In this document: in pieces, positions 1-32,287 of the stretch
How positions within the stretch are numbered: the first letter of the stretch is position 1
How the letters are laid out: every line of letters begins with the position of its first letter
Assembly (NCBI GenBank): GCA_964552275.1
Contig: CAZKFS010000001.1
Location: forward strand, 1-35,433
Direction: 5' to 3'
Source of the DNA: an uncultured Candidatus Saccharibacteria bacterium
Lineage (GTDB): Bacteria > Patescibacteriota > Minisyncoccia > Phycocordibacterales > DATDWN01
DNA: 35,433 bases
Translations under genes and position numbers: made by a program
The notes under the pieces: generated by a model
The model's input: the letters and a program-made list of their open reading frames with translations, nothing else
The model's database searches: none
What the model was told of the DNA's origin: nothing

Positions 1-551
1 GATATGCTTAACTTTCTTTGAAAAAACTTATCAGAATTAAATCCTATAACAATTGAGTTTGAACATTGACCATGTTCTCCTGCGCATTCGGATTGATAGT
101 CTTCCAGAATTTTATCACCAGAAATTATAACTTCCCTAAAATACATGTCGGAATAAGAATGTGATGACCTCCATTTTTCAATTGTTTGTGTACCGACTCC
201 CGGCCCAAAATCATGGATTGTAAAAAATAAATCTTTATTATTATATGTTTTGTTATTTACAGATAAAATTACTCGACTTTCTGGGTTCTTATAAGTTTGT
301 AACAACCATTCTTGCGGATACTTAAACTCAAACCCATACTGTTCATTTCTATATGTCTTCCAATCAGCTGTTCCATCCACTACCTCAGTTTTAACTTCAC
401 TTACCACCTCCTCTCCCCTGATTTGGAAGTACCAGACGCAAAAAGCTGAGATGAGAAGTAGAGTAAATACGGAAATGAAAATAAATATAAACTTGTGGTT
501 GTGGTTTTTTGGTTCTTGAACTAAAGGAGTTGGGTTTTGCTCTGGATTCAT
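1..551 (-). CDS. hypothetical membrane-anchored protein; C-terminus cut by the window edge
   Basis: My own minus-strand translation from the ATG at 549-551 gives MNPEQNPTPLVQEPKNHNHKFIFIFISVFTLLLISAFCVWYFQIRGEE..., one N-terminal TM helix followed by a soluble domain. The frame stays open to position 1. It is absent from the supplied track because it runs off the edge. Confidence 0.5.
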   Translation of the reverse strand, partial: MNPEQNPTPLVQEPKNHNHKFIFIFISVFTLLLISAFCVWYFQIRGEEVVSEVKTEVVDGTADWKTYRNEQYGFEFKYPQEWLLQTYKNPESRVILSVNNKTYNNKDLFFTIHDFGPGVGTQTIEKWRSSHSYSDMYFREVIISGDKILEDYQSECAGEHGQCSNSIVIGFNSDKFFQRKLSI

Positions 552-579: not shown

Positions 580-617
580 AAAACAAAACCCTTAACTTAA
601 TAAGGGTTTTGTTTTTT
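580..617. terminator. bidirectional-looking intrinsic terminator hairpin
   Basis: aaaacaaaaccctta / taagggttttgtttt stem with flanking A and T runs. It lies just 3' of the 659-1873 gene. Confidence 0.6.
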
Positions 618-658: not shown

Positions 659-1873
659 TTATTGTTGGTTCATGGAGGCTCGGGTGCGCACTCCGACTAA
701 CCCATACCCCGTAGTCGCCTCAGTTCCAGAACAAATGCCCATCTTTGCACATTGGTATTTTCTAACAGCTGCTTTTGTTAAAGTTCCAAAGTATCCTGTG
801 TTGCTTCCTGCTGAAAGATAGCCTTTTGCTATTAGGAAATTCTGAAGAGAAATAATATCTGATCCTCTCGCACCCATATACACAGTTCTAGTAAGAGCAA
901 TACTTCCTCCAGCAACTGGACTAGGTGTTGGTGTTACCACGTTAACTGGTGTAGGGCTGGGTGCTACAGCTATTCCACCACTCAGGGTAGCTCTGGTTCT
1001 AGCGCCAACCAAACCATACCCCGTAGTCGCCTCACTTCCAGAACAAACAGCTATTTTGTCACATTGATATCTTCTAACTGCAGATTGAGTGAGAGGGCCA
1101 AAGTATCCTGTGTTACTACCATACGTTAAATATCCACTATCGATAAGAAAGTTTTGCAAACTTACAACATCAGAACCCTTACTACCAATATACACTGTTC
1201 TAGATAAACTAACTGACCTTACTGAAGTTCCAGGTGTTGTTGGTTGTGGTGTTAGAACATTGACCGGTGTAGGCGATGGGGTTGGTGTTAAGACGTTAAC
1301 TGGTGTAGGTGATGGAGTAGGTACTGGTGTTGGTGTAACTGTCACTGCACCAGTTATACTGAAACTTGCTGAGCTAGCTGAAGTTAGAACTTCTGCTCCA
1401 GCACTAGCTACGTTTGTATCAGTTGTTCTCCCTGAAACAGCATCAAAAGATAGACTTGGTGTTCCCCCACTCACTGCTTGAAAAGTGATTGAGAGTAGTG
1501 TTCCTGCACCTGTGTAGTGTTGGCCTCCAGCTACAACCTGAGAAAATGTTATTAATCCAGCTGCATTATCTACCGTGTTAGTAAGTGTTGTTGGCATTAG
1601 AGAACCTGGGGTCACTTGTACTCCTGACATGTTTGGGTTTGAATCCACAACCTGCAAAACTCCTGGAGTAAATCTCAAATATCTCAAATCAACTCCGTCA
1701 ATCTGAGCACCAGATGTATTCAACATCACATTTACTGTAAAGGTGGAACCTGAGGAGTATGTTCCAGAAGAAGGACTTATTGATAGTGTTGCAGCACTAG
1801 CTGTAGAAGTTACAAATAAAAGTGCCGCCACTATATAAAATTTAGTCATTTTTGTTTTAATTTTTATTTTCAT
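659..1873 (-). CDS. secreted cohesin-like domain protein with PT linkers and two peptidoglycan-binding (PG_binding_1-like) repeats
   Basis: Signal peptide MTKFYIVAALLFVTSTASA. Cohesin-like module ATLSISPSSGTYSSGSTFTVNVMLNTSGAQIDGVDLRYLRFTPGVLQVVD. Two repeats of GSKGSDVVSLQNFLIDSGYL..GYFGPLTQSAVRRYQ type. Confidence 0.7.
   Translation of the reverse strand: MKIKIKTKMTKFYIVAALLFVTSTASAATLSISPSSGTYSSGSTFTVNVMLNTSGAQIDGVDLRYLRFTPGVLQVVDSNPNMSGVQVTPGSLMPTTLTNTVDNAAGLITFSQVVAGGQHYTGAGTLLSITFQAVSGGTPSLSFDAVSGRTTDTNVASAGAEVLTSASSASFSITGAVTVTPTPVPTPSPTPVNVLTPTPSPTPVNVLTPQPTTPGTSVRSVSLSRTVYIGSKGSDVVSLQNFLIDSGYLTYGSNTGYFGPLTQSAVRRYQCDKIAVCSGSEATTGYGLVGARTRATLSGGIAVAPSPTPVNVVTPTPSPVAGGSIALTRTVYMGARGSDIISLQNFLIAKGYLSAGSNTGYFGTLTKAAVRKYQCAKMGICSGTEATTGYGLVGVRTRASMNQQ
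1248..1319. repeat. 2 x 36-nt tandem repeat encoding the Pro/Thr linker (TPTPSPTPVNVL x2)
   Basis: ggtgttagaacattgaccggtgtaggcgatggggtt is followed by ggtgttaagacgttaactggtgtaggtgatggagta. A third diverged copy lies near 921-957. Confidence 0.8.
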
Positions 1874-1899
1874 ATTTTTATTATAAATTTAATTATACA

Positions 1900-3171
1900 C
1901 TACTGGCCTATTTGCAACCAATTGTTTGATAAGTAAGCAAAATCTAATGAGTTAACAGCACCGTCTTTATTTATATCAGTAAGAGTATTATTTGTTAACC
2001 AATTTAGATTCATATTTGAGAAATCCAGAGAGTTTATTATTTGATCAGCGTTAAAATCCCCTGCTGGAAGATTTGGTGTTGTTGCAACAAGTAATGAGCT
2101 GGACAAAGTATCTACACTCAAAATTCTTCTGGATAGATAACCGCTGATAACAGGGCGTATAGTTATAACACCAGGCAAGCCAGAAGGTATAGTTACAGTT
2201 ACTTGTCCACTAATGTTTGTACTTATAGGAATTTGTCCCAACAAACTATAATCCGAGTTATTAAGATATTGAACTACTCCAGATACATTTCTCTTTGAAG
2301 CACTAGCTCCTTCCAAAAGTAATACTATTTGTCTTTGAATAACAGCTGGGGCACTTGTGTTAAAGACCTGATTGGCAGATGTCGATAGATTCCCGGCAGA
2401 ATCTTTTGATTTAACTCTATAGTTGTATGTACTACCTGGTGATAACCCAGACAAAACAACTGAGTGACTCGTCACTGGAGAAGTATTTAGAGTTGTGGAT
2501 TGTCCATAAGCGGTAGTTAGACCATAGTCCACCTGTGTATCGCTTGCTTCGTTTGTTGTCCAACTTATATTTGCGCTATTTGTAGTTACCCCAGTAGTTA
2601 GTATGGATGAAATTGTTGGGGCTGTTGTATCAACTGGCACCGCAGTCAAAGTGTAAGTTCCGTTTGTTATAGAAGAAAGCAAATCACTTCCGAGACCAGC
2701 AACATTTGTATCAGTACCACTACCAGAAGTGAAGTCGAAAGTTACGTTGGCAGTTCCAGCAGAAATTGCACGAAAAGTAATCGTTGCAAAAGTTCCAGAA
2801 CCGTTATATATATTTCCTGGGTCGGCTAATTGTGAAAGCTGTATTGAACCACCAACATTGTCTACTGAATTTAATGTTGTCACAGACATAAGAGACCCCA
2901 TAGTGATTTGAACACCTGATGTATTACTATCAGCATCGACAACTTGAAGCAGTGCAGGGTTAAAACGTAATCGGTTTATATCAACACCGTACGTTGCTTG
3001 TCCTGAGGCATTCAAAAGTATGTTAACTGTAAAGGTGTTCCCTACGGAAACTGACGAAGATGAAGGTGATAAGGTTAAAGTCGCTGCATAACTAAGACTC
3101 GGAACAACACATAAAAACAAAACTATGGCTATTAATGATTTTTTATACATAATTTTTATCATTTGATTCAT
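1900..3171 (-). CDS. secreted cohesin-FN3-dockerin protein (putative adaptor scaffoldin)
   Basis: Signal peptide MYKKSLIAIVLFLCVVPSLSYA; the start could be 3171, 3162 or 3150, and the track start at 3255 overlaps the upstream gene. It has a cohesin-like module and an FN3 (ISWTTNEASDTQVDYGLTTAYG...YNYRVKSKDSAGN). The C-terminal dockerin-like pair is DFNADQIINSLDF / DINKDGAVNSLDF. Confidence 0.7.
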   Translation of the reverse strand: MNQMIKIMYKKSLIAIVLFLCVVPSLSYAATLTLSPSSSSVSVGNTFTVNILLNASGQATYGVDINRLRFNPALLQVVDADSNTSGVQITMGSLMSVTTLNSVDNVGGSIQLSQLADPGNIYNGSGTFATITFRAISAGTANVTFDFTSGSGTDTNVAGLGSDLLSSITNGTYTLTAVPVDTTAPTISSILTTGVTTNSANISWTTNEASDTQVDYGLTTAYGQSTTLNTSPVTSHSVVLSGLSPGSTYNYRVKSKDSAGNLSTSANQVFNTSAPAVIQRQIVLLLEGASASKRNVSGVVQYLNNSDYSLLGQIPISTNISGQVTVTIPSGLPGVITIRPVISGYLSRRILSVDTLSSSLLVATTPNLPAGDFNADQIINSLDFSNMNLNWLTNNTLTDINKDGAVNSLDFAYLSNNWLQIGQ

Positions 3172-3217
3172 TGTACCAAATACAAACACTGTTCGATACA
3201 AGTATATCCCCACCCCC

Positions 3218-4975
3218 CTACCATGTTCTCCCCCACTGTGACGACAAGGTAGCAAAGTCCAGAGAGTTAACTAGAGAGTCACGGTTCAGGTCAGATATGG
3301 TGTTAGAGGTAAACCAGTGAGAGTTCATGACGGAGTAGTCTAGAGAGTTAACTATACGATCTAGGTTTAGATCTCCTGCAAGTGGTGTAGGTGTTGGAGT
3401 CGGAGTGGGTGTAGGAGTTGGAGATGGAGATGGTGATGAACTACCTGTTAGTGTAGTAAAGGTTTGGTTGTTAGAGTAGGATATGTTGTTTGAAGCATCT
3501 CTAGCTTGGGCACGGTAGTTGTATACAGTGTTAGGTGTTAGTCCAGTTAGAGTTACAGAGTGTGAGACACTACCTGTAGATGACAGTGTACCTCCGTATC
3601 CTGTGGTGAGACCGTACTGTACAGAAGAGTTTGATATTTCGTTTGTTGTGAAGGTGATTGTTGCTCCACTGGAGGTTATGTTTGATATGGATACAGAAGA
3701 GATGGTTGGTGCTGTGTTGTCTATTACTGCTTCTGATGCTCCTGGTCGTACTAGGAGTGAGGATATATTTTGGGGTGGGTTTATCAGAGACGCGAAGTTA
3801 CGGATGTAGGCGACGAAGTCTCGGTCATTACCACGAGTATATAGGTCAGTTGATGTGTTGTATTCAAGGAAGAAACTTTCTATTGAGTTAGGTGGCGTAG
3901 ACCTTGGATCAACTGATATCTGAAGTTTGTCATAAATCTGTACTGGCTCATTATCCTCATCTGCTATCCAGGCACTCACAAGGTCATAATCATTAGCTCT
4001 CTGATCTATTAGATACCAAAAACGCACCCATTTATTTGGCTTGATTATGAAATCATTTAACTGTGGTGACAAATTTTCTGAATAAGTAACATTTGGTCCC
4101 GCATAGCTTCCATCAGTCTTTGTCCAATCTGGGTCACCTCCAACTTTAGTGTAAGATCTTGATTTAAATGTAGACACGGAAGTACTTTGACTAAAACCAG
4201 GTACAACGTTTCCAGTAATAGGTGAATGGCCTGAGAATACTGTATTCGGCTCAAGCCAAATACCATTTGATATAAAGTTGAAAGTCTTGTGATTTTTAAG
4301 CCCAGAATTTAAATATGAGTCAGTCCAATATCCATCCCAAGTAAACAAGTATACGTTCCCATCTGAAGTACCCAAAGGTAGGTAAGTAAGATAAGGAACT
4401 GTGTTTACAGAAATAGCCACATGAGTACCTGCGTTATGACTTGTAGCTGCCGTACCATACTGACCTCTCTTAACATAGAGAACACCAGTAGTCCTATCAT
4501 AACCCTTTAATGGACCATTTCCATCTGGATCAAAAATCACCATTTTTTCAGAATTAACTAAAAGAGTTCTACCGTTGACCTGATACGTTGTCTTATCTGG
4601 TTGTATCAACAAAACTTCTGTTGTGGCATCAATTGGATTTATTAAGGTACCGGAATTATTCGCCCCTACTGGAGAAAAAGCTGGGATAACAATCTTCGTC
4701 GCATCTTGCTTATGCGGATCTGTATCAGAACTAGGTAGATAGCTAACCCATGGATTACCAGTCTCACCTCTTCCATAACCACCATCCTTTCTATCATAAA
4801 GTTGTTTCTCATAGTGAGGGGAAGTTATCGGGGCACCAGCTTTAGGCCTTAAGCTATAACCTTTCCAAAAATCACCCCTAGAGACAAGAGAATCAAAGTA
4901 ATCATGTTCTCCTGCAGCGAAAGTCAAAAATGGAATAAATAAAATAAAAAATAAAAAATATAGTATTTTTTTCAT
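3218..4975 (-). CDS. secreted protein: unassigned ~400-aa N-terminal domain + FN3 + (PT)n linker + dockerin-like C-terminus
   Basis: Signal peptide MKKILYFLFFILFIPFLTFA. FN3 (ITFTTNEISNSSVQYGLTTGYG...YNYRAQARDASNN). SPSPSPTPTPTPTPTPTP linker. DLNLDRIVNSLDY / DLNRDSLVNSLDF repeats. Confidence 0.7.
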   Translation of the reverse strand: MKKILYFLFFILFIPFLTFAAGEHDYFDSLVSRGDFWKGYSLRPKAGAPITSPHYEKQLYDRKDGGYGRGETGNPWVSYLPSSDTDPHKQDATKIVIPAFSPVGANNSGTLINPIDATTEVLLIQPDKTTYQVNGRTLLVNSEKMVIFDPDGNGPLKGYDRTTGVLYVKRGQYGTAATSHNAGTHVAISVNTVPYLTYLPLGTSDGNVYLFTWDGYWTDSYLNSGLKNHKTFNFISNGIWLEPNTVFSGHSPITGNVVPGFSQSTSVSTFKSRSYTKVGGDPDWTKTDGSYAGPNVTYSENLSPQLNDFIIKPNKWVRFWYLIDQRANDYDLVSAWIADEDNEPVQIYDKLQISVDPRSTPPNSIESFFLEYNTSTDLYTRGNDRDFVAYIRNFASLINPPQNISSLLVRPGASEAVIDNTAPTISSVSISNITSSGATITFTTNEISNSSVQYGLTTGYGGTLSSTGSVSHSVTLTGLTPNTVYNYRAQARDASNNISYSNNQTFTTLTGSSSPSPSPTPTPTPTPTPTPLAGDLNLDRIVNSLDYSVMNSHWFTSNTISDLNRDSLVNSLDFATLSSQWGRTW

Positions 4976-7081: not shown

Positions 7082-7687
7082 TTACTCTAGCAATCCATCT
7101 AGGTTTACATCATAAAGTATCTGATCCTGAATAAGTCTGTAGTTTATTATTTCTCCATCTTCAAACCAATGCTTTATTTCCATTTCTGCTTCTTTTACTG
7201 AGCCTGATGCGTGAACTAGATTTCTGACAGATCTTTTGTCGGTATCAGATATAGCATATGAATCTATAACAAAATCACCTCGTATAGTACCAACATCTGA
7301 GGAACGTGGCTCTGTTCCTCCTGTTATCTTGCGACCTATTTCCACAACATGCACACCTTCCCAAACCATAGCCACCACAGGACCTGAAGTCATGAACCTT
7401 TTTAAATTCTCCAAAACAACCCTGGTTACTTCTAGAGGATCCATAGTCCATGGTGTTTCACCCTTTTTTACATAACTAGCAATTGTTTTTTCTCCCGTAA
7501 TCCTCCTCCATTCAGGATCAAGGGTATAATGCTTCTCAATATGCTCTGCAGTTGGAACAAGCATCTTCATACCAACAAGTTTCAGACCAGCACGCTCATA
7601 TCTTTTTATTATCTCTCCTATTAGAGTCCTCTGTATTCCATCTGGTTTTATCAAGATAAGTGTTCTTTCTTTTTTTGGGTGTGACAT
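7082..7687 (-). CDS. ndk: nucleoside diphosphate kinase, long form
   Basis: ERTLILIKPDGIQR, FMTSGPVVAMVWEG, GTIRGDF and NLVHASGS (catalytic His) motifs. At 201 aa it is longer than usual, with an internal insertion and a C-terminal tail. Confidence 0.85.
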   Translation of the reverse strand: MSHPKKERTLILIKPDGIQRTLIGEIIKRYERAGLKLVGMKMLVPTAEHIEKHYTLDPEWRRITGEKTIASYVKKGETPWTMDPLEVTRVVLENLKRFMTSGPVVAMVWEGVHVVEIGRKITGGTEPRSSDVGTIRGDFVIDSYAISDTDKRSVRNLVHASGSVKEAEMEIKHWFEDGEIINYRLIQDQILYDVNLDGLLE

Positions 7688-23090: not shown

Positions 23091-24296
23091 CTAAGCAATA
23101 ATCTTAGTAACAACTCCAGCTCCAACAGTCTTACCTCCCTCTCGAATAGCAAACTTAGTATTATCCTCTAGAGCAACTGGTGCTACTAGTTTAACTTTGA
23201 ATGTAACTTGATCTCCTGGCATAACCATTTCTACTCCCTCATTTAGAGTCACATCTCCTGTAACGTCTGTAGTTCGGATATAGAATTGTGGTTTGTAACC
23301 AGAGAAGAATGGTGTGTGTCTTCCCCCTTCTTCTTTCTTCAAGATGTAAACCTCAGCTGTAAACTCTGTGTGTGGAGTCACTGACTTTGGTTTTGAAAGA
23401 ACCTGACCTCGGTGAATTTCTTCTTTCTTTGCACCTCTAAGTAGGATTCCGGCGTTATCTCCAGCCTCTCCTTGGTTTAGAGATTTGTTGAACATTTCGA
23501 TACCAGTAACTGTGTATTTCTGTGTATCCTTTAGACCAACACATTCGATTTCTTCACCTACTTTCACGATTCCTCTCTCGATTCTTCCTGTTACCACTGT
23601 TCCTCTTCCTTCAATTGAGAAAATGTCTTCAACTGGCATAAGGAATGGCTTATCAAGATCTCTTTCTGGAACTGGGAAGTATGTATCTAGAGCTGTTGCA
23701 AGATCTAGAACTTTCTTTGCCCACTCGTCATCGTTGTTAGCTGATTCAAGAGCTTTCAATCCTGATCCTCTAATAATAGGTGCGCCTGCTCCGTCGAAAC
23801 CTTGTTTTGTAAGGAGTTCTCGAACTTCCTCCTCAACTAGATCGATAAGCTCTGCATCTGGCACCATGTCACATTTGTTTAGGAAAACAATGATCTTTGG
23901 TACTCCAACTTGTTTAGCAAGTAGAACATGCTCTCTTGTTTGAGGCATCACACCGTCTGTAGCTGCTACCACTAGCACTGCACCGTCCATTTGAGCGGCA
24001 CCAGTAATCATGTTTTTGATGTAGTCAGCGTGTCCAGGAGCATCTACGTGAGCATAGTGTCTTGTAGGTGTCTCGTATTCGTTGTGAGAAAGAGCAATAG
24101 TAATTCCTCTTGCTTTTTCCTCTGGAGCAGAGTCGATTTCACCAACTCCTTTTAGTTTAGCTCCGTAACCATTTCCCTGTCGTGAAAGAACAGTCAAAAT
24201 AGCTGCTGTTAATGTTGTCTTACCATGGTCAACGTGACCGATAGTTCCCACATTCATGTGTGGCTTACTTCGATCGAATTGTGCTGATTCTGCCAT
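23091..24296 (-). CDS. tuf: elongation factor Tu
   Basis: [22 protein letters not shown] motifs; 401 aa. Confidence 0.97.
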
Positions 24297-24767: not shown

Positions 24768-27038
24768 TTAGACTTTTTTATTTATCCTATCTAATTCCCT
24801 TACAGCTAACTTAAAAGCCTCCTCTTCATCTGTTCCCAAGAACCATGAACCCTTGAACTCTGGCTTTACTGACAACTTTCCACCCACAGGGCCTCCTCCT
24901 ATCTCTCTACCATTCAAAACTATTCTAAAAGCATCAGAGTCTCTAATAACTTTTATTTCACCAGACTCGTACGGTATTCTATGAAAAACTTCACTCTTCA
25001 TAAAATCACCTTCTTCACTATGCATTATTCCAGAAAACTTCTTTATATTTCCAGTAGAAACATCATATAAAACATCTTTACTACCATCCAATTTTTCATA
25101 TACAACGTTTCCTTCTTCGGTAACAACCAAACTCTCCCCTTTAAAACCGACACCACTCAATTTTTTGGCTGGGTTATAAAAACCAAAAGTCTCAGCCAAA
25201 TATTCTGTTGGAATATCTATAATGTTGGTTTTTATTTTTTCAGGAATATTATTCGCAGAACCATAATTCTGCTTAATCTTTTCCTTGAGCTCATCTAGAG
25301 TTTTTATAAAACCTTTGGGAGAAACCTCTACTCTGTTTTCTGTTTTTTTAGTTTCAGCACTGTCTTTCAGTTCTACATCAGAAACTGCAGTTCCTTTGCC
25401 CGACAACCCATCCAGCATATTCAAATCTGGTGAGCCAGCATTATTTGGAGTCAAACCAAGAATAGCTGTAACTGCAAGTATATGAGCAGTTCTTGGAATA
25501 AGAGACAGTTTTTTAAAACTTTTTGCTATAATCCTCTGCTCAACTGGTTTTCTCTGCTCAAGCATCTCTTTTTCCAAAATATTGCGCTCTTCTTCAACCT
25601 CTTCCAGAAGTTTGACGTTCACCTCATAAGTTTCCATGTTGCTAAGTCCGATCAAAGATCCTGGTTGATTGTCCTCCCTAAATCTAGTCTCTGTAGGTAG
25701 TTTGTGTATACCCAAAGCTTTTATCTTTGCTTGGTGAGCTTCTCTGTACTTTGTCTCAGCGAGATCTATCTCTTTATTAAAAATTTCCAAAGAAACTGGT
25801 TTTGTTACACCCAAATCTGAAAAGATTCTACCTATAACATTTTGTCTTTCACGAATTTTATTTCTATGTTGAAAATATTGACTTACATATTCTGTACGAG
25901 CCTCAACCAGCCTAGCCTCTACAGCTTCTAAGGCATCCTCAGCCTTACTCTCTACAACTTCATCTGTGACGACAGCTTCTTTTTTTTCTGTGACAAAATC
26001 ATCAACCTTACTCTCCACAACTTTCTCACCATTTTTTTTCTTTAATTCTACTTTTTCTTCTTCTCGTAACTCAGTCTCCAACCTTAGTACTTCGGCTTCG
26101 TCTCTATATTTTTCTGCAACCGCAATACGATCCCTGAGCTCAGCTATTCTACCTGTATATTTTGGTTTAGTAGGTTCATTATCTTCCTCAGGCTTTGCTT
26201 CTTTTTTAGAAGAACCTTCCTGTTCCGCTAAACGCAATTCATTTTCCAAGCGTAAAACTTCTTCTTCATCATCTTTTGCCTCTGCTTTTTTAATTAGCTT
26301 TCTGAGCCCTACTACTCTATCTGTCTTTTCTGGTTTATCCAAAGAAACTTCAGGTGAAACTTCATCATCTTCCACTGGAAAATCTTCAGCAACTACTTCA
26401 TCTTGATGAGTATCTTCAAAACCCAAAATTTCCAATAATTCTTCATAATCTCCTCTTATCTTCGAAAGAGCTCCCTTCTTTTTTGATAACTTATCTATGA
26501 TCATTCTTGCTTCATCTTTAGTTTCTGCATGTGTTAAATCCCACTTAGCATCCCTGAGAGAAGTCTTTATAGAGTGGTTACCTTCAGTGCTTATGAGTCC
26601 ATTCAGATAGTTGATCGCTCCTTTTCTAGCTTTTGGTGACAAGTCTAAAACTTTAAAGTCTGACTCGACTTTTTCTGGTTCTGGTATTTTTTCTGGTTGC
26701 ACTTCAACAACTGGGGCTGGTTCACCAACCTCTTCCTCACTAATAAAATCACCAGACTCTTCTGCTGTTACGGGTTCTTCAGATTTTTTATCATCATCAA
26801 ATGATAATATTTTGTCTCCATCTTCAGCATCAAACTCACTTAAATAATCTTCTTCATCATCTATAATTACTCCATCCCTATCAACTCTCTCCATAATTCT
26901 AATAGGCACGTGACGACCACCTTCTCTTTGAGAGTCTAAAATGGAATGTCTGTTGTGTTCTGGCACAACATATTCAGGATTTATTTGTCCGTATTGAACT
27001 CTTCTTTCTTTTCCCCCAGATTCAATAGTAGTGTGCAT
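24768..27038 (-). CDS. large acidic coiled-coil protein with one TM segment (756 aa), unknown function
   Basis: Very high E/D/K content. Internal repeat EVLRLENELR / EVLRLETELR. Hydrophobic segment AHILAVTAILGLT. The C-terminal ~200 aa are less biased. Confidence 0.65.
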   Translation of the reverse strand: MHTTIESGGKERRVQYGQINPEYVVPEHNRHSILDSQREGGRHVPIRIMERVDRDGVIIDDEEDYLSEFDAEDGDKILSFDDDKKSEEPVTAEESGDFISEEEVGEPAPVVEVQPEKIPEPEKVESDFKVLDLSPKARKGAINYLNGLISTEGNHSIKTSLRDAKWDLTHAETKDEARMIIDKLSKKKGALSKIRGDYEELLEILGFEDTHQDEVVAEDFPVEDDEVSPEVSLDKPEKTDRVVGLRKLIKKAEAKDDEEEVLRLENELRLAEQEGSSKKEAKPEEDNEPTKPKYTGRIAELRDRIAVAEKYRDEAEVLRLETELREEEKVELKKKNGEKVVESKVDDFVTEKKEAVVTDEVVESKAEDALEAVEARLVEARTEYVSQYFQHRNKIRERQNVIGRIFSDLGVTKPVSLEIFNKEIDLAETKYREAHQAKIKALGIHKLPTETRFREDNQPGSLIGLSNMETYEVNVKLLEEVEEERNILEKEMLEQRKPVEQRIIAKSFKKLSLIPRTAHILAVTAILGLTPNNAGSPDLNMLDGLSGKGTAVSDVELKDSAETKKTENRVEVSPKGFIKTLDELKEKIKQNYGSANNIPEKIKTNIIDIPTEYLAETFGFYNPAKKLSGVGFKGESLVVTEEGNVVYEKLDGSKDVLYDVSTGNIKKFSGIMHSEEGDFMKSEVFHRIPYESGEIKVIRDSDAFRIVLNGREIGGGPVGGKLSVKPEFKGSWFLGTDEEEAFKLAVRELDRINKKV

Positions 27039-27237: not shown

Positions 27238-29379
27238 TTACTTTCTTGATTCCACTATTGTTTTCTCAATATTTGGTGGCACCACCTCATAATGATCAAA
27301 CTCCATCATTATACTTCCTCTTCCTTGAGTCATTGATCTTATATCTGTTGTATAACCAAACATTTCAGATAGTGGAACTTTTGCGTGAATAACTCGGAGC
27401 ATTCCTCTCTCATCCATACCTTCTATTTGACCACGTTTACCAGAAAGTGAACCTGTTATATCTCCCATGAACTGTTCTGGCATTATAGCTTCAACTTTCA
27501 TAATAGGCTCTAGAATAACTGGCTTTGCTCTCTTGGCTGCGTCTTGGAAAGCTTGCGATGCTGCGATTTTATAAGCGATTTCAGATGAGTCCACGTCGTG
27601 ATAAGAACCAAAAGTAAGTTCACAAGAAATATTTACCATTTTGTATCCAGCGACTATACCTCTATCCATTGCTTCGTGAACACCTTTTTCAACTGCAGGA
27701 ATAAACTCTTGTGGAATAACACCTCCTTTGATTGAATCGATGAATTCGAAGTCTTCATATCGATGAACGTTCTTTGGAATTTTTGCACCTTCTTCCAATT
27801 TCTCTAGAGGTTTGATAGTAAGCTTTACGTGACCGTACTGACCCTTACCTCCAGTTTGTTTTATGTATTTGTGTTCAGCGTCAGCAGATGCCAAGATAGT
27901 TTCTCTGTATGCTACTTGTGGTTTACCGACATTTACTTCCACACCGAACTCTCTTTTCATACGATCCACCATGATTTCAAGATGTAGTTCTCCCATTCCA
28001 GAAATAATACTTTCACCGGTATCAGTGTTTGATGAAATAATGAAAGTTGGATCCTCATCAGAAAGTTTTTTCATGGCCATACCCATTTTCTCTTGGTCAG
28101 CTTTTGTTTTTGGTTCTATTCTTAGAGACACCACTGGATCAACGAACTTGATAGGGTCAAGCAAAATAGGGTTACTCTCATCACAAAATGTATGTGATGT
28201 TTTTGCAGACTTTAGTCCCACAGCTGCTGCTATTTCTCCAGCAAAAACTTTCTTTACCTCTTCACGTTTGTCAGCCTGAAGTCTTACTATACGTCCCAGT
28301 CTTTCTTTTTCACCTGTTGTTGAGTTATATATATATGAACCAGCTTCTATTGTTCCAGAGTAAACTCTAAAGAATGTTAGCTGTCCCACGAATGGATCGT
28401 TTTGAAGTTTGAAAGCAAGAGCAGAAAAAGGCTCAGTATCAGAAGCTTTTCTATAAATTTCTTCGTTTGTTTTTGGATCAAGTCCGTGAACTGGAGGAAT
28501 ATCTAGTGGAGATGGTAGATAATCAACCACGCCATCTAGAACCAACTGAACACCTTTGTTTTTCAAAGCTGAACCAGCAAATACTGGGATGATTTTTACA
28601 GCGAGAGAAGCGGCTCTCAAAGTTGCTTTCAAAACATCGTATGATGGCTCTTTGCCTTCTAGATAACCCGCCATCAAAGCATCGTCTTGCTCAACGATTT
28701 TCTCCACAAGTTCTGCTCGATATTTCTTGGCCTCATCCAAATATTCTGCAGGTATTTCCTCTTCACGAATACTCATACCCATATTTCCTTCGAAATAAAA
28801 GGCTTTCATTTTCATTAGATCGATAACTCCTTCGAACTTATCTTCTAGTCCCATTGGGATTTGCACACGAACTGCATTTTTATTTAGTCGGTCTAGAATA
28901 GATGCGTATGAACGCTCAAAAGATGCTCCTGTTCTATCTAGTTTGTTGATAAAACAAATTCTTGGAACATTTCCATCGTCTGCGTATCTCCAGTTTGTTT
29001 CTGATTGAGGTTCTACACCAGCAACTCCATCGAAAACCACAACCGCACCGTCCAAAACTCTAAGAGATCTTTTCACTTCAGCTGTAAAGTCGATGTGACC
29101 AGGAGTATCGATAACGTTGAAACGATATTCTGGTTTTTGGCCTCTTGGCATATATGTAGGGTTCCAGAAACATGTAATAGCCGCTGCTGTAATAGTGATA
29201 CCACGTTCTCGCTCTTGCTCCATCCAGTCTGTAACTGTTGCACCGTCATGCACCTCACCTATTTTGTGAGTCATTCCTGTGTAGAACAAAACGCGCTCTG
29301 ATGTTGTTGTTTTACCAGCATCAATGTGAGCTATAATACCGAAGTTTCTAACCTTATCTAATGTATAATCGCGGTTCAT
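27238..29379 (-). CDS. fusA: elongation factor G
   Basis: [23 protein letters not shown] motifs; 713 aa. Confidence 0.97.
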
Positions 29380-29545: not shown

Positions 29546-32287
29546 CTATTTCTTGTACTTCTTCAAAATGTTAGCTTCGATTTCTGCCCTATCCCCTCCA
29601 TAAGTCATATAGGAAAGTTGTTTTAAGTTTTCAATAATAGCAGGGTTGCCTTTTGGTGCTGGTTCAGCTTTCATATTAAATGCTTTTGCTGGTCTTCCAC
29701 CTACGAGCATTTTTACAATAGCATTGTAGTTATCAATACTCATTATATCTTTAGCGGTAAATACGGGACTGAACTGTTTCTCTAAATACTCAGCATCTTC
29801 TGCTCCAACTCGGTAAGAAATAATAGAGCCCACGTTACCAAACACAGCATCTCGAATGTCATCTTGCAATTGAGCGATAAACTGATGCGCAATATTTAGA
29901 GATAGTTTATATTTTCTAGCTTCAGACAAAATAGTGGCTATAGAATTTGTGGTTATATTTTGAAACTCATCTATATATAGATAAAATGGCGGGAAATCCT
30001 TACCTATTGAATCCACTCTAGAAAGAGCTGCCATCAAAATCTTTCCTACTAGGATAAGACCTATAAGGTTGGCGTTAATATCTCCCAATCTTCCTTTAGA
30101 TAGATTGACCAGAAGAATCTTCTTTTCATCCATTATTTGTCGGAAATTGAAAGATGATTTTTCTTGAGCAATAATAGGTCGCATAATATCGTTAGCCAAA
30201 AACACATCAAATTTTGAAGTTATATATGGAACAATGTTAGCAAGTGACGCCTCCCCTCCAGCTTTTTCTGCAACCTCTGTCCAGAACTGATAAACAACAG
30301 GGTTTTTACATTTCGACAACTTCATCATTCTGAATTCTTTATTTGTCATCACCCTAGAAACATCGAGAAGAGTGCACCCTGAATCTGGATCTTCTATTAC
30401 AAGCATTGTCGCATTACGAAAATACTGTTCAAACATTGGCCCTAGAGATTCTGGCACACCACCATAAAGTTTTTGGAATATGCTAAACAATTCATTGACC
30501 ACAAAAGTTTTTTGTTCTGGGAATCTTGGATCGTACTCCAGCATATTAAGAGCCATCGGTCTGTCTGTATAACTAGGATCAAAATATATAACATCTGTTA
30601 ACCTCTCCTGTGGAATATTCGAGAGTATATCCAAAACATCAGAACCATGAGGATCGATAAAACAAGCACCGAGTCCCGCCTTTATATCCTGAACTATCAT
30701 GTTTTTTAGCAAAGTTGTTTTACCTGTACCAGTTTGTCCGATAGTGTAGGTGTGTCTGAGTCTGTCTTCGTCCTGCATATATATAGGTGTATCGACATTA
30801 CGATAAGAATTCACCCCAAGTCTAGTGCCAGATCCCACCATATCAGATGGGGCTGGCGCAGAAACAGATTGTGTTTGTTTTAGTTGAGGTGTCGGTGAAA
30901 GTGCTGTTGTGTGGAAATGAATCAGGGTTGTAAATTCATGGAGGTTGAGTGGCAAAACCTTTGCGGAATCATAAGTTCTAAAAGAAAAATCTCTTAGCAT
31001 TTTATTTAGAGCACTCTTCTCTAACCTTCTAGGTCTTAGGCCTGTTGAAGCAGAATCAGTGAACTGATTGAAGCTTGATTCCAAACTGGTGAGTATCCTC
31101 TCTGCATCAGGGCGACTTTGTGCCGATGCAACCAGACGAATATTTGTAGCAACAATAGTACTGGATATTTTTTGTTTTATTTTTTGTATTGCCTCACTAT
31201 CGATAGGCTTTTTCTCCTCATCTGGTTTTGGAGCTGATTTAAAGAGAGAAGACAAAGTTTTGCCCAGTTCTCCACCAAAAGTCTCTGGAATATCTATGGC
31301 CTCCTTTGTTGGTATACCTTTTTCTATTTTTTCAATAGCGTATTCATATTTTTTATTATAATAATCACCTCTTGGAGAGAAAATTATTTGAATACCGGCT
31401 CCCTCCCCCTCTTTTTGTATTTTAGAAAAACTATTCAATATAACGTTGAGTGGATCATGATCAAAAGACTCATATGTTTTTATTTGATAGATAGGATTGT
31501 TACTAGATTCTAGATATGAACCTATAGAAACTCCGTCACTGTTAAAAATATTGTAGTCCGAAGTAGTTTCAGTTAACTTGGCGTTGTGAAAAACTGATAT
31601 CATCTGTCTCTCAAACAAATCTTTGTGTAGGTTAGGTACGGCAACATAGAAAACAAACTGGTCGCTTCCGTTTGGGTTAGCGATCTCGAGAACAATATAA
31701 TTCTCTCTATAATTCTTCGTACTATCTTTTGACACAACCGAAAGCATGCCGGCCAAAAACTGCTCCATACTCGAAACCACCTCCTTTAGACTCTTTGTTT
31801 TTTCTTGACCTTTGTCTTCAGGCAAAATCACCTCGTACAATGCCATGTCGAGACCCATGAATTCCTTACTCCTCACATCAATATCTTTACCCTTATAACC
31901 ATTTTTTAAGTATTGAACTAAGAATCTATGAAAATCGTCTTCTAGGTGAGGATCTTTGAAACCGGATATAACTGACATTGTGTTTTTTATACCATTTTCG
32001 TTTAGAACAACGAGAAGTTCTGTCATCTTTTTATCGTGAGTTTCTGGAGCAAGGTTTAATATAATAGTCTCAGCGTCATGTTTAGCTATTGCATAAGTCT
32101 CATCTAAAACCTCCTTTGGTAACACATCCCTATAACGAGATATTTCTTCTCCTACAACTTGATCAAGTTTTACATCAAAACTCTTTTCTCTATACTCTGC
32201 TTCTTTTTGGGAAATCTTTTCTCTCAGAAAAGCGATTTCTTGTTCTGGGCTAGTAAACTGAGGTAGTGTCTCTGCATTTTTTTCCAT
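29546..32287 (-). CDS. TraD/VirD4 (type IV coupling protein)-like or HerA/FtsK-superfamily P-loop ATPase with a large unassigned N-terminal domain
   Basis: Walker A GQTGTGKTT, then FIDPHGSD. Walker B LYIDEFQN. ARKYKLSLNIAHQFIAQL. No obvious TM helix in the first ~480 aa. Confidence 0.65.
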   Translation of the reverse strand: MEKNAETLPQFTSPEQEIAFLREKISQKEAEYREKSFDVKLDQVVGEEISRYRDVLPKEVLDETYAIAKHDAETIILNLAPETHDKKMTELLVVLNENGIKNTMSVISGFKDPHLEDDFHRFLVQYLKNGYKGKDIDVRSKEFMGLDMALYEVILPEDKGQEKTKSLKEVVSSMEQFLAGMLSVVSKDSTKNYRENYIVLEIANPNGSDQFVFYVAVPNLHKDLFERQMISVFHNAKLTETTSDYNIFNSDGVSIGSYLESSNNPIYQIKTYESFDHDPLNVILNSFSKIQKEGEGAGIQIIFSPRGDYYNKKYEYAIEKIEKGIPTKEAIDIPETFGGELGKTLSSLFKSAPKPDEEKKPIDSEAIQKIKQKISSTIVATNIRLVASAQSRPDAERILTSLESSFNQFTDSASTGLRPRRLEKSALNKMLRDFSFRTYDSAKVLPLNLHEFTTLIHFHTTALSPTPQLKQTQSVSAPAPSDMVGSGTRLGVNSYRNVDTPIYMQDEDRLRHTYTIGQTGTGKTTLLKNMIVQDIKAGLGACFIDPHGSDVLDILSNIPQERLTDVIYFDPSYTDRPMALNMLEYDPRFPEQKTFVVNELFSIFQKLYGGVPESLGPMFEQYFRNATMLVIEDPDSGCTLLDVSRVMTNKEFRMMKLSKCKNPVVYQFWTEVAEKAGGEASLANIVPYITSKFDVFLANDIMRPIIAQEKSSFNFRQIMDEKKILLVNLSKGRLGDINANLIGLILVGKILMAALSRVDSIGKDFPPFYLYIDEFQNITTNSIATILSEARKYKLSLNIAHQFIAQLQDDIRDAVFGNVGSIISYRVGAEDAEYLEKQFSPVFTAKDIMSIDNYNAIVKMLVGGRPAKAFNMKAEPAPKGNPAIIENLKQLSYMTYGGDRAEIEANILKKYKK

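Follow-up and report, generated by a model that had tools for sequence, protein, structure and literature searches.

A putative two-tier, non-cellulosomal cohesin-dockerin display system on the surface of a Candidate Phyla Radiation bacterium

Cohesin-dockerin pairs are known outside cellulosomes, for example in the glycosidase/toxin complexes of C. perfringens and in proteins of Archaeoglobus fulgidus. In known cellulosomes, the X-module-dockerin dyad (X-Doc) marks a separate specificity class. A cellulosomal scaffoldin is fixed to a wall-anchored cohesin through the type II dyad (X-Doc II), and surface-layer homology (SLH) modules and sortase are the only two anchoring mechanisms in a 2025 cellulosome review (PMC12484212). 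Here we analyze three consecutive genes, A, B and C, in 35,433 nucleotides of DNA from an uncultured Candidatus Saccharibacteria bacterium (contig CAZKFS010000001.1, positions 1 to 35,433; the whole stretch is hereafter called the window). We consider it probable, with moderate confidence, that together they form a two-tier, non-cellulosomal cohesin-dockerin surface display of a Candidate Phyla Radiation (CPR) bacterium of the Parcubacteria/Paceibacteria type, with A as the anchor, B as the adaptor and C as a lyase-like cargo.

CPR bacteria are commonly episymbionts, and how they hold on to a host and exploit it is among the major open questions about them. So far, only type IV pili and a small number of essential envelope proteins have been implicated, including a dockerin protein that is essential in a cultivated Saccharibacterium, Southlakia (PMC10633639). 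In the searchable literature on cohesins and dockerins in CPR, Patescibacteria or Saccharibacteria, we came across no anchor-adaptor-cargo system, only CAZyme tallies, giant dockerin proteins of Omnitrophota and the Southlakia protein. Single proteins of this kind have already been named automatically in databases, for example as 'dockerin type I domain-containing protein'.

A first-pass annotation, made by a model from the sequence alone, had proposed that the three genes encode consecutive secreted proteins forming an anchor, adaptor and cargo hierarchy. The open reading frame (ORF) list places all three in the same orientation on the minus strand, at 659-1873 (A), 1900-3171 (B) and 3218-4975 (C). 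A Sec signal peptide with an AXA-type site can be read at the N-terminus of each protein (ASA-A, SYA-A and TFA-A, respectively, with the hyphen marking the site), and A, B and C are thus exported by Sec, in line with the secretion that had been proposed. No terminator-like hairpins were found between C, B and A. A promoter scan returned fewer sites than shuffled sequence and is therefore uninformative on whether the module has a separate promoter. The features of the locus are as follows, with residue numbers referring to each protein.

659..1873, minus strand, gene A, anchor protein of 404 aa (ORF; small family of cohesin plus PG_binding_1 proteins).
1793..1873, minus strand, signal peptide of A, residues 1-27, ending in TSTASA-A (sequence reading).
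1349..1792, minus strand, cohesin module of A, residues 28-175, a paralogue of the B cohesin (48% identity to B; orthologues match PF00963).
1229..1348, minus strand, Pro/Thr-rich linker of A with repeated TPTPSPTPVNVLTP (sequence).
974..1228, minus strand, first PG_binding_1 repeat of A with a leader segment (Pfam; PDB 4xxt, E=0.0024).
662..913, minus strand, second PG_binding_1 repeat of A (Pfam; 68% identity to the first repeat).
1900..3171, minus strand, gene B, adaptor or scaffoldin-like protein of 423 aa, or 416 aa from Met8 (ORF; Pfam; CPR-wide adaptor family).
3085..3171, minus strand, signal peptide of B, residues 1-29, ending in VVPSLSYA-A (sequence reading).
2638..3084, minus strand, cohesin module of B, residues 30-178 (Pfam Cohesin, 27.5 bits, cut-off 24.1; the family profile best matches PDB cohesins).
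2347..2631, minus strand, FN3 domain of B, residues 181-275 (Pfam fn3, 31.7 bits, and Pur_ac_phosph_N, 38.6 bits; FN3 of chitinase A1 in PDB, E=5e-5).
2077..2346, minus strand, predicted X-like beta-sandwich module of B, residues 276-365, adjoining the dockerin (AlphaFold2 (AF2) model; Foldseek; motif).
1903..2076, minus strand, adaptor-type dockerin of B with the signature GDFN...FAYLSNNWLxxGQ (Pfam; two helices in the model).
3218..4975, minus strand, gene C, cargo protein of 585 aa with a signal peptide, lyase-like domain, FN3, PT linker and dockerin (ORF; Pfam).
4916..4975, minus strand, signal peptide of C, residues 1-20, MKKILYFLFFILFIPFLTFA-A (sequence reading).
3716..4915, minus strand, cargo domain of C, residues 21-420, a predicted concanavalin A (ConA)-like beta-jelly-roll with a small inserted phage-tail-like subdomain (AF2; Foldseek).
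3446..3730, minus strand, FN3 domain of C, residues ~416-510 (Pfam Pur_ac_phosph_N, 33.2 bits).
3392..3445, minus strand, Pro/Thr/Ser-rich flexible linker of C, SSSPSPSPTPTPTPTPTPTP (sequence).
3221..3391, minus strand, cargo-type dockerin of C with no X module and two canonical calcium loops (Pfam; loops D1 N3 D5 N9 D12).
580..615, no strand given, terminator-like hairpin just 3' of gene A.

In the arrangement that we favor, A would attach non-covalently to the peptidoglycan of its own cell through the two PG_binding_1 repeats and hold out its one cohesin on the Pro/Thr linker. B would act as a one-cohesin scaffoldin, its predicted X-Doc dyad plugging into the A cohesin and its FN3 spacer presenting its own cohesin further out. 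The linker-borne, calcium-dependent dockerin of C would dock into that cohesin, with the ConA-like jelly-roll exposed at the cell periphery. The cargo would most likely bind or cleave an acidic exopolysaccharide, capsule or wall glycan, and in an episymbiont the target glycan would be that of the host or a neighbor. Adaptor and anchor would be a conserved chassis that carries interchangeable, lineage-specific cargos.

Structural evidence comes from the C-terminus of B, where the first-pass annotation had noted a beta-rich region ahead of a dockerin-like pair. Residues 276-423 were modeled by AF2 with an alignment of 50 homologues, which gave a sandwich of seven to eight strands and, after it, two helices (fragment residues 106-114 and 133-141), with a predicted local distance difference test score (pLDDT) of 87.5 and a predicted template modeling score (pTM) of 0.77. 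In a Foldseek search of the PDB with this model, the top 10 matches were all type II X-Doc dyads of cellulosomal scaffoldins, which covered the whole fragment at TMq 0.66-0.76 (E=6.5e-9 to 2e-6) and included chains from CipA (4fl4, 5g5d, 3kcp, 2b59, 5k39), CipB (5m0y) and A. cellulolyticus ScaA (4u3s, 4wi0). The next matches fell to E=5e-5 and covered the sandwich alone. The beta-rich region and the dockerin of B are thus predicted to fold together as a structurally type II-like X-Doc dyad.

The dockerin assignments themselves held up well. The pairs proposed in B (DFNADQIINSLDF / DINKDGAVNSLDF) and C (DLNLDRIVNSLDY / DLNRDSLVNSLDF) are both present, and Dockerin_1 (PF00404) matches the two proteins at 33.8 and 26.8 bits, respectively (cut-off 22.9). 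The calcium-binding Asp/Asn positions, on which the first-pass annotation had made its dockerin call depend, are intact in 4 of 4 loops, each of which reads D-x-N-x-D-x-x-x-N-x-x-D with D or N at positions 1, 3, 5, 9 and 12. The loop starts are 27 residues apart, a short repeat spacing. Unlike B, the dockerin of C is borne on its PT linker and has no X module. This difference extends to related loci, where every cohesin plus dockerin protein that we inspected has an X-like module abutting its dockerin, with the motif (G/P)(Y/F)L(S/T/A)R...VD, and cargo dockerins, including that of C, are preceded by Pro/Thr linkers or Ig/SH3-like domains. Adaptor dockerins also have a common signature, GDFN...NSLDFAYLSNNWLxxG[EQ], that is missing from cargo dockerins. 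Recognition positions 10/11/17/18 do not separate the two kinds, which can be told apart only by the presence of the X module and by the start (GDFN) and tail (WLxxG(E/Q)) of the signature.

The earlier assignments of the cohesins and FN3 domains were also supported. The B cohesin and the B FN3 were both supported by Pfam; the A cohesin had no direct match, and the fn3 model scored 24.8 bits in C, just below the cut-off of 25, even as the FN3-like Pur_ac_phosph_N model matched there. The paralogy suggested for the two cohesins was confirmed, with 48% identity over 194 aa (E=2e-45) and the motif ATL(S/T)(I/L)SPSS...TFTVN present in both. The Pfam Cohesin model PF00963 is matched by anchors orthologous to A and by related cohesins. 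A profile of 15 cohesin modules had A. cellulolyticus ScaB (3l8q) as its best PDB match, and six of its top eight matches were cohesins. The PDB search that returned the FN3 of chitinase A1 also gave weak matches to 2jnk and 2ozn, which we take to be tied to non-cellulosomal cohesin-dockerin modules.

Two PG_binding_1-like repeats and the lack of a dockerin had been proposed for A, and both were borne out: PG_binding_1 (PF01471) scored 69.6 bits in total over two repeats (cut-off 23), and no dockerin was detected by Pfam. The repeats also gave weak matches to the peptidoglycan-binding domains of solved wall hydrolases in the PDB. No SLH module was matched in A by Pfam, and its sequence has neither an LPXTG motif nor a lipobox, leaving it with no covalent anchor. 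The cohesin plus PG_binding_1 architecture is rare: among 5.8 billion proteins, it accounts for roughly a dozen clusters. As a separate observation, the repeats of A (662-1228) have a conserved Cys pair and an extension, YQC....CSG(S/T)EATTGYGLVG.RTRA, as do those of two related loci described below (L002 and L018). The Cys pair is missing from the lone PG_binding_1 domain of a Zambryskibacteria anchor (L027), and Cys-pair repeats may represent a disulfide-stabilized subtype.

Gene starts in A and B differ between sources. Database gene calls start at Met9 in A, giving 396 aa, and at Met8 in B, giving 416 aa. The mechanical ORF of B reaches a TTG at 3255 that overlaps C, and a start at the ATG at 3171 or a later Met is more plausible.

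The first-pass annotation had left the N-terminal domain of C unassigned and had suggested that display could serve attachment or degradation of host surfaces rather than breakdown of cellulose. No sequence match to these 400 residues (21-420) was found in Pfam, NCBIfam or the PDB. The AF2 model of the domain (pLDDT 92.5, pTM 0.90) has a ConA-like jelly-roll half, for which the best Foldseek matches were lyases of polysaccharide lyase (PL) families PL14, PL36, PL20, PL28, PL7 and PL13 (probability 1.00, E=1e-6 to 1e-4, TMt 0.42-0.48), and also GH131 and TtX122 domains. In a viral structure library, the model matched chlorovirus proteins and an alginate-lyase-2 protein. K210, R253 and R298 are invariant in the jelly-roll half, and Y255, Q305, R306, Y310, Y370 and R372 are near-invariant. 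Among 43 cargo homologues, PF14099 (Polysacc_lyase) gave weak matches in two, at E=0.01, below threshold.

The cargo domain belongs to a large family, with 108 clusters in a word-indexed search and 2144 representative clusters in an exhaustive hidden Markov model (HMM) search, and reaches beyond CPR into Acidobacteriota, Gemmatimonadota and Myxococcota. All three stand-alone homologues that we examined lie within exopolysaccharide (EPS) biosynthesis clusters, next to genes for glycosyltransferases, a Wzx flippase, methyltransferases, a sulfatase or sulfotransferases, and heparinase II/III-like proteins. A UDP-sugar dehydrogenase is encoded in two of these three clusters (L023 and L025), one of which also has the heparinase II/III-like proteins. 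In fusions, the family is joined to extracellular spacers or sorting signals only. We infer that the domain acts as a polysaccharide lyase or, at the least, binds acidic glycans. Its predicted lyase-like fold fits the suggestion that display serves attachment or surface-polysaccharide degradation and not cellulolysis. The family likely constitutes a new polysaccharide lyase or glycan-binding group associated with EPS loci.

The small subdomain inserted in the cargo domain, with the motif E..RG..GT.A..H..G, resembles phage tail-tip and tail-fiber modules; in a search of the family profile against the PDB, it weakly matched the phage tip attachment protein J (8rk3, E=0.0073). The same motif was matched in 32 separate stretches of one giant protein of 7472 aa (P0310).

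To see how the three genes are arranged elsewhere, related loci can be compared. The nearest relatives of the A, B and C proteins are all from metagenome-assembled genomes (MAGs) of CPR, and the small-genome, probably episymbiotic setting proposed earlier is reasonable on this basis. A search with the adaptor gave 351 matches at E<=1e-8, many of the top-scoring ones with both Cohesin and Dockerin_1, and the source names of the homologues include Zambryskibacteria, Paceibacterota, Doudnabacteria and Azambacteria. The closest cargo homologue among reference genomes is from a Saccharibacteria MAG. One locus, named 'Parcubacteria group bacterium' by NCBI (L018), shares synteny with the window, starting at ribosomal protein S5 and running to the anchor gene, and has orthologues of B (cohesin 78.5% and dockerin 85% identical) and A (78%). 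The pair of adaptor and anchor recurs in this locus and in L019-L022: L019/L020 encode a membrane-anchored cohesin, a cohesin-Big_7-dockerin adaptor and a cohesin plus PG_binding_1 anchor, and L021/L022 a cohesin-PKD-dockerin adaptor, an anchor and a small membrane cohesin.

Two further arrangements bear on the hierarchy. In Zambryskibacteria (L026/L027), the gene order of the window is kept, with an unrelated cargo: a 5099-aa cargo (Laminin_G_3, FN3, a Pel9A-like beta-helix and a C-terminal dockerin), a 725-aa adaptor and a 347-aa cohesin plus PG_binding_1 anchor. In a Saccharibacteria locus (L002), a single 1095-aa protein consists of a cargo domain (63% identical to that of C), FN3, an unassigned stretch, a second FN3 and two PG_binding_1 repeats that contain Cys as in A. 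This protein has no cohesin or dockerin, and its peptidoglycan-binding repeats are the sole anchor. The fusion ties the cargo to the peptidoglycan-binding module in function, and argues that the window reaches the same end state without a covalent bond. The predicted X-Doc-like fold of B, the Zambryskibacteria gene order, the recurring pair of adaptor and anchor, and this fusion independently support the anchor, adaptor and cargo hierarchy that had been proposed.

Other loci vary in their cohesin and cargo content. Larger sets of dockerin cargos accompany one to three cohesin proteins in L001, L017, L028 and L029. Some cohesin 'anchors' (L001 6155-7966; L029 2644-3804) end in a different repeated domain in place of PG_binding_1, with no Pfam match and the motif ...VYLI..G.(K/R)R.(F/I)......F...GF......V.., which may be an alternative CPR wall-binding module. 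Proteins of ~200 aa that carry a cohesin alone behind an N-terminal transmembrane helix (L001 3933-4583, L017 4844-5461, L019 5500-6144, L021 4781-5344) make up a third, membrane-anchored class of cohesin carrier, none of which is visible in the window. One 580-aa protein (P0152) combines a dockerin, a cohesin and an Amidase_2 (peptidoglycan amidase) domain, and thereby exemplifies how an enzyme that lyses the wall is connected to a system of this type.

Several of these results weigh against the arrangement that we favor. As to the cargo, its structural likeness to lyases is moderate (TMt 0.45-0.48 over ~200-250 of 400 residues), legume lectins are only slightly behind in the structure search, no PL-family HMM in Pfam matches the C protein, and the conserved K/R/Y/Q residues could not be mapped onto lyase catalytic sites. 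As to the pairing, the A cohesin lacks a direct match to PF00963, and the match of the cohesin profile to the PDB is weak (E=0.0016). The dockerins of B and C are 61% identical, with S-L at the classical recognition positions 10/11 in 4 of 4 repeats, and the cohesins of A and B are ~50% identical, with roles only partly resolved in a neighbor-joining tree of the 15 cohesins. Finally, the syntenic Parcubacteria-group locus has no cargo gene. C is therefore a recent, lineage-specific addition to the locus, and could equally bind A directly.

A lectin role for the cargo is a live alternative. The domain would then be a non-catalytic lectin or adhesin, in effect a large carbohydrate-binding module (CBM)-like module, and the system purely adhesive. 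Its fold is common to legume lectins and botulinum toxin receptor-binding domains, whose scores are within two orders of magnitude of those of the lyases, and the spacers and sorting signals to which the family is fused are all non-catalytic; the missing PL match points the same way. However, the top structural matches are to lyases of six PL families, and K, R, Y, Q and D residues in the jelly-roll half are invariant or nearly so. The UDP-sugar dehydrogenase of two of the three EPS clusters, joined in one by heparinase II/III-like proteins, also argues against a purely adhesive role, which we regard as possible but doubtful.

The main rival to the hierarchy itself is a system with one specificity and no fixed order, in which both dockerins bind both cohesins and C and B compete for A. 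B could then chain head-to-tail into fibers of variable length, rooted on A and capped by C. In its favor, the dockerins share their 10/11 residues at 61% identity, and the cohesins are ~50% identical and split only partly by role. The Parcubacteria-group locus is also accommodated, as it holds just B and A and the sole partner in view for its B cohesin is another B, and the Saccharibacteria fusion shows a cargo working while tied directly to a peptidoglycan-binding module. Against this, linker-borne and X-Doc dockerins and their signatures split consistently by role across the adaptor homologues that we inspected, and X-Doc is a class of its own in known cellulosomes. Anchor and adaptor cohesins also form orthologous pairs across genomes (67% identity between L001_603 and L019_A, and 61% between L001_555 and L019_531). 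On balance, we judge a single specificity to be unlikely.

An alternative placement of the anchored hierarchy, in which the PG_binding_1 repeats of A grip host peptidoglycan, would turn the assembly into an adhesin or attack complex with some other protein as its base on the producer. The episymbiotic habit of CPR bacteria and the missing covalent anchor of A would suit such a role, and the ~200-aa transmembrane cohesins of related loci could hold the X-Doc. Dockerin proteins are also known to matter in co-culture (PMC10633639). However, A has no dockerin and B has one module of each kind, which leaves none to tie the chain to the producer; there is no membrane cohesin in the window, and the Saccharibacteria fusion is anchored by peptidoglycan-binding repeats alone. 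We therefore consider a grip on the host wall improbable.

Pfam scores only a few bits over the cut-offs would also fit cohesin-like and dockerin-like modules that do not pair at all, as independent structural or calcium-binding modules placed side by side by chance, and to our knowledge no partner has been identified for many dockerins and cohesins outside cellulosomes, but we find this very improbable given intact calcium loops, a specific X-Doc fold match and cohesin and dockerin genes that are neighbors in nine or more independent loci of several CPR lineages.

The genes A, B and C form the downstream end of a long run of housekeeping genes, which includes EF-G, ribosomal protein operons, SecY, Adk, Map, Ndk and a beta-CASP RNase. 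No further cohesin or dockerin was found within the window beyond the three genes. The gene that lies 3' of the anchor gene (1-551, minus strand, open at the window edge) encodes a membrane-anchored protein (MNPEQNPTP...) with a repeated domain of the type WKTYRNE(E/Q)YGFEFKYP; it has no cohesin or dockerin, and its position is kept in L018 (325 aa). The nucleoside diphosphate kinase (7082-7687, minus strand) is unusually long at 201 aa, as is its equal in L018 (201 aa), and because the NDK model matches in two stretches, the sequence suggests an insertion.

Further upstream, a 756-aa ORF with no Pfam match (24768-27038, minus strand) lies between EF-G (27238-29379) and a 401-aa ORF (23091-24296), an unusual location for a large gene of this kind within a run of translation-factor and ribosomal-protein genes. 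A 913-aa protein (29546-32287, minus strand) ends in a domain of the TraG/VirD4 coupling-protein type (TraG-D_C, 24.3 bits) and may belong to a type IV secretion system or one related to competence. Such systems have been reported for Saccharibacteria.

The locus offers a concrete and testable architecture, with an anchor bound to peptidoglycan, an adaptor that has a type II-like X-Doc, and an exchangeable cargo, and the same chassis is found with other cargos in Zambryskibacteria, Doudnabacteria, Saccharibacteria and related lineages. It would extend the cohesin-dockerin paradigm to PG_binding_1 anchoring and to a minimal, non-cellulolytic scaffold in which each tier has a single cohesin. It also flags a large, uncharacterized cargo family, with >2000 representative clusters and no Pfam model. 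A broader and more speculative proposal, which we hold only tentatively and think may well be wrong, is that Parcubacteria-type CPR carry a conserved plug-and-socket platform, made up of a wall-binding or membrane-anchored cohesin anchor and a single-cohesin X-Doc adaptor, onto which lyase-like jelly-rolls, beta-helix lyase-like giants and Laminin_G lectins are swapped as lineage-specific cargos, and that, for such ultra-small episymbionts, it is a principal means of host attachment and of breaching host capsules or walls. If this is true, it would offer a genetic handle on host range.

Among described systems, the attachment tier of clostridial cellulosomes (X-Doc II of C. thermocellum CipA binding SdbA/OlpB/Orf2p, and ScaA-ScaB-ScaC of A. 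cellulolyticus) follows the same three-level logic, with a wall-bound cohesin protein, an adaptor with cohesin and X-Doc, and a dockerin cargo. The modeled C-terminus of B matches X-Doc II structures, and the dockerin calcium loops are canonical. The differences are that A uses PG_binding_1 repeats in place of SLH modules or sortase, that A and B have one cohesin each and form no multi-enzyme scaffold, that the 27-residue dockerin spacing is short, and that the bacterium is a small-genome CPR member and not a cellulolytic Firmicute. Pfam and NCBIfam detected no glycoside hydrolase (GH) or CBM family, including CBM3, in A, B or C. With no multi-cohesin scaffoldin, GH or CBM in the three proteins, a cellulosome in the strict sense is ruled out. 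Non-cellulosomal cohesin-dockerin modules are similar in assembling secreted proteins outside plant-cell-wall degradation and, as in A. fulgidus, in having cohesin and dockerin in one protein; the present system differs in its dedicated peptidoglycan-binding anchor, its CPR-wide family of X-Doc adaptors and its conserved operon order.

The cargo is comparable to the jelly-roll lyases (PL14 AkAly30, 5gmt; PL36 Aly36B, 6kcw; PL20 glucuronan lyase, 2zzj; PL7, PL28 and PL13) in its predicted ConA-like core, its conserved basic and aromatic residues and the placement of its family at uronate-type EPS loci. It differs in having only ~10-13% sequence identity to them, in matching no Pfam/PL HMM, and in being ~150 residues larger, with an N-terminal region and the phage-tail-like insert. 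Another close counterpart is the Saccharibacteria fusion, which has the same cargo family (63%), the same type of FN3 and the same unusual Cys-containing PG_binding_1 repeats. It is a single covalent chain, whereas the window would achieve the same connectivity through two non-covalent plug-socket joints.

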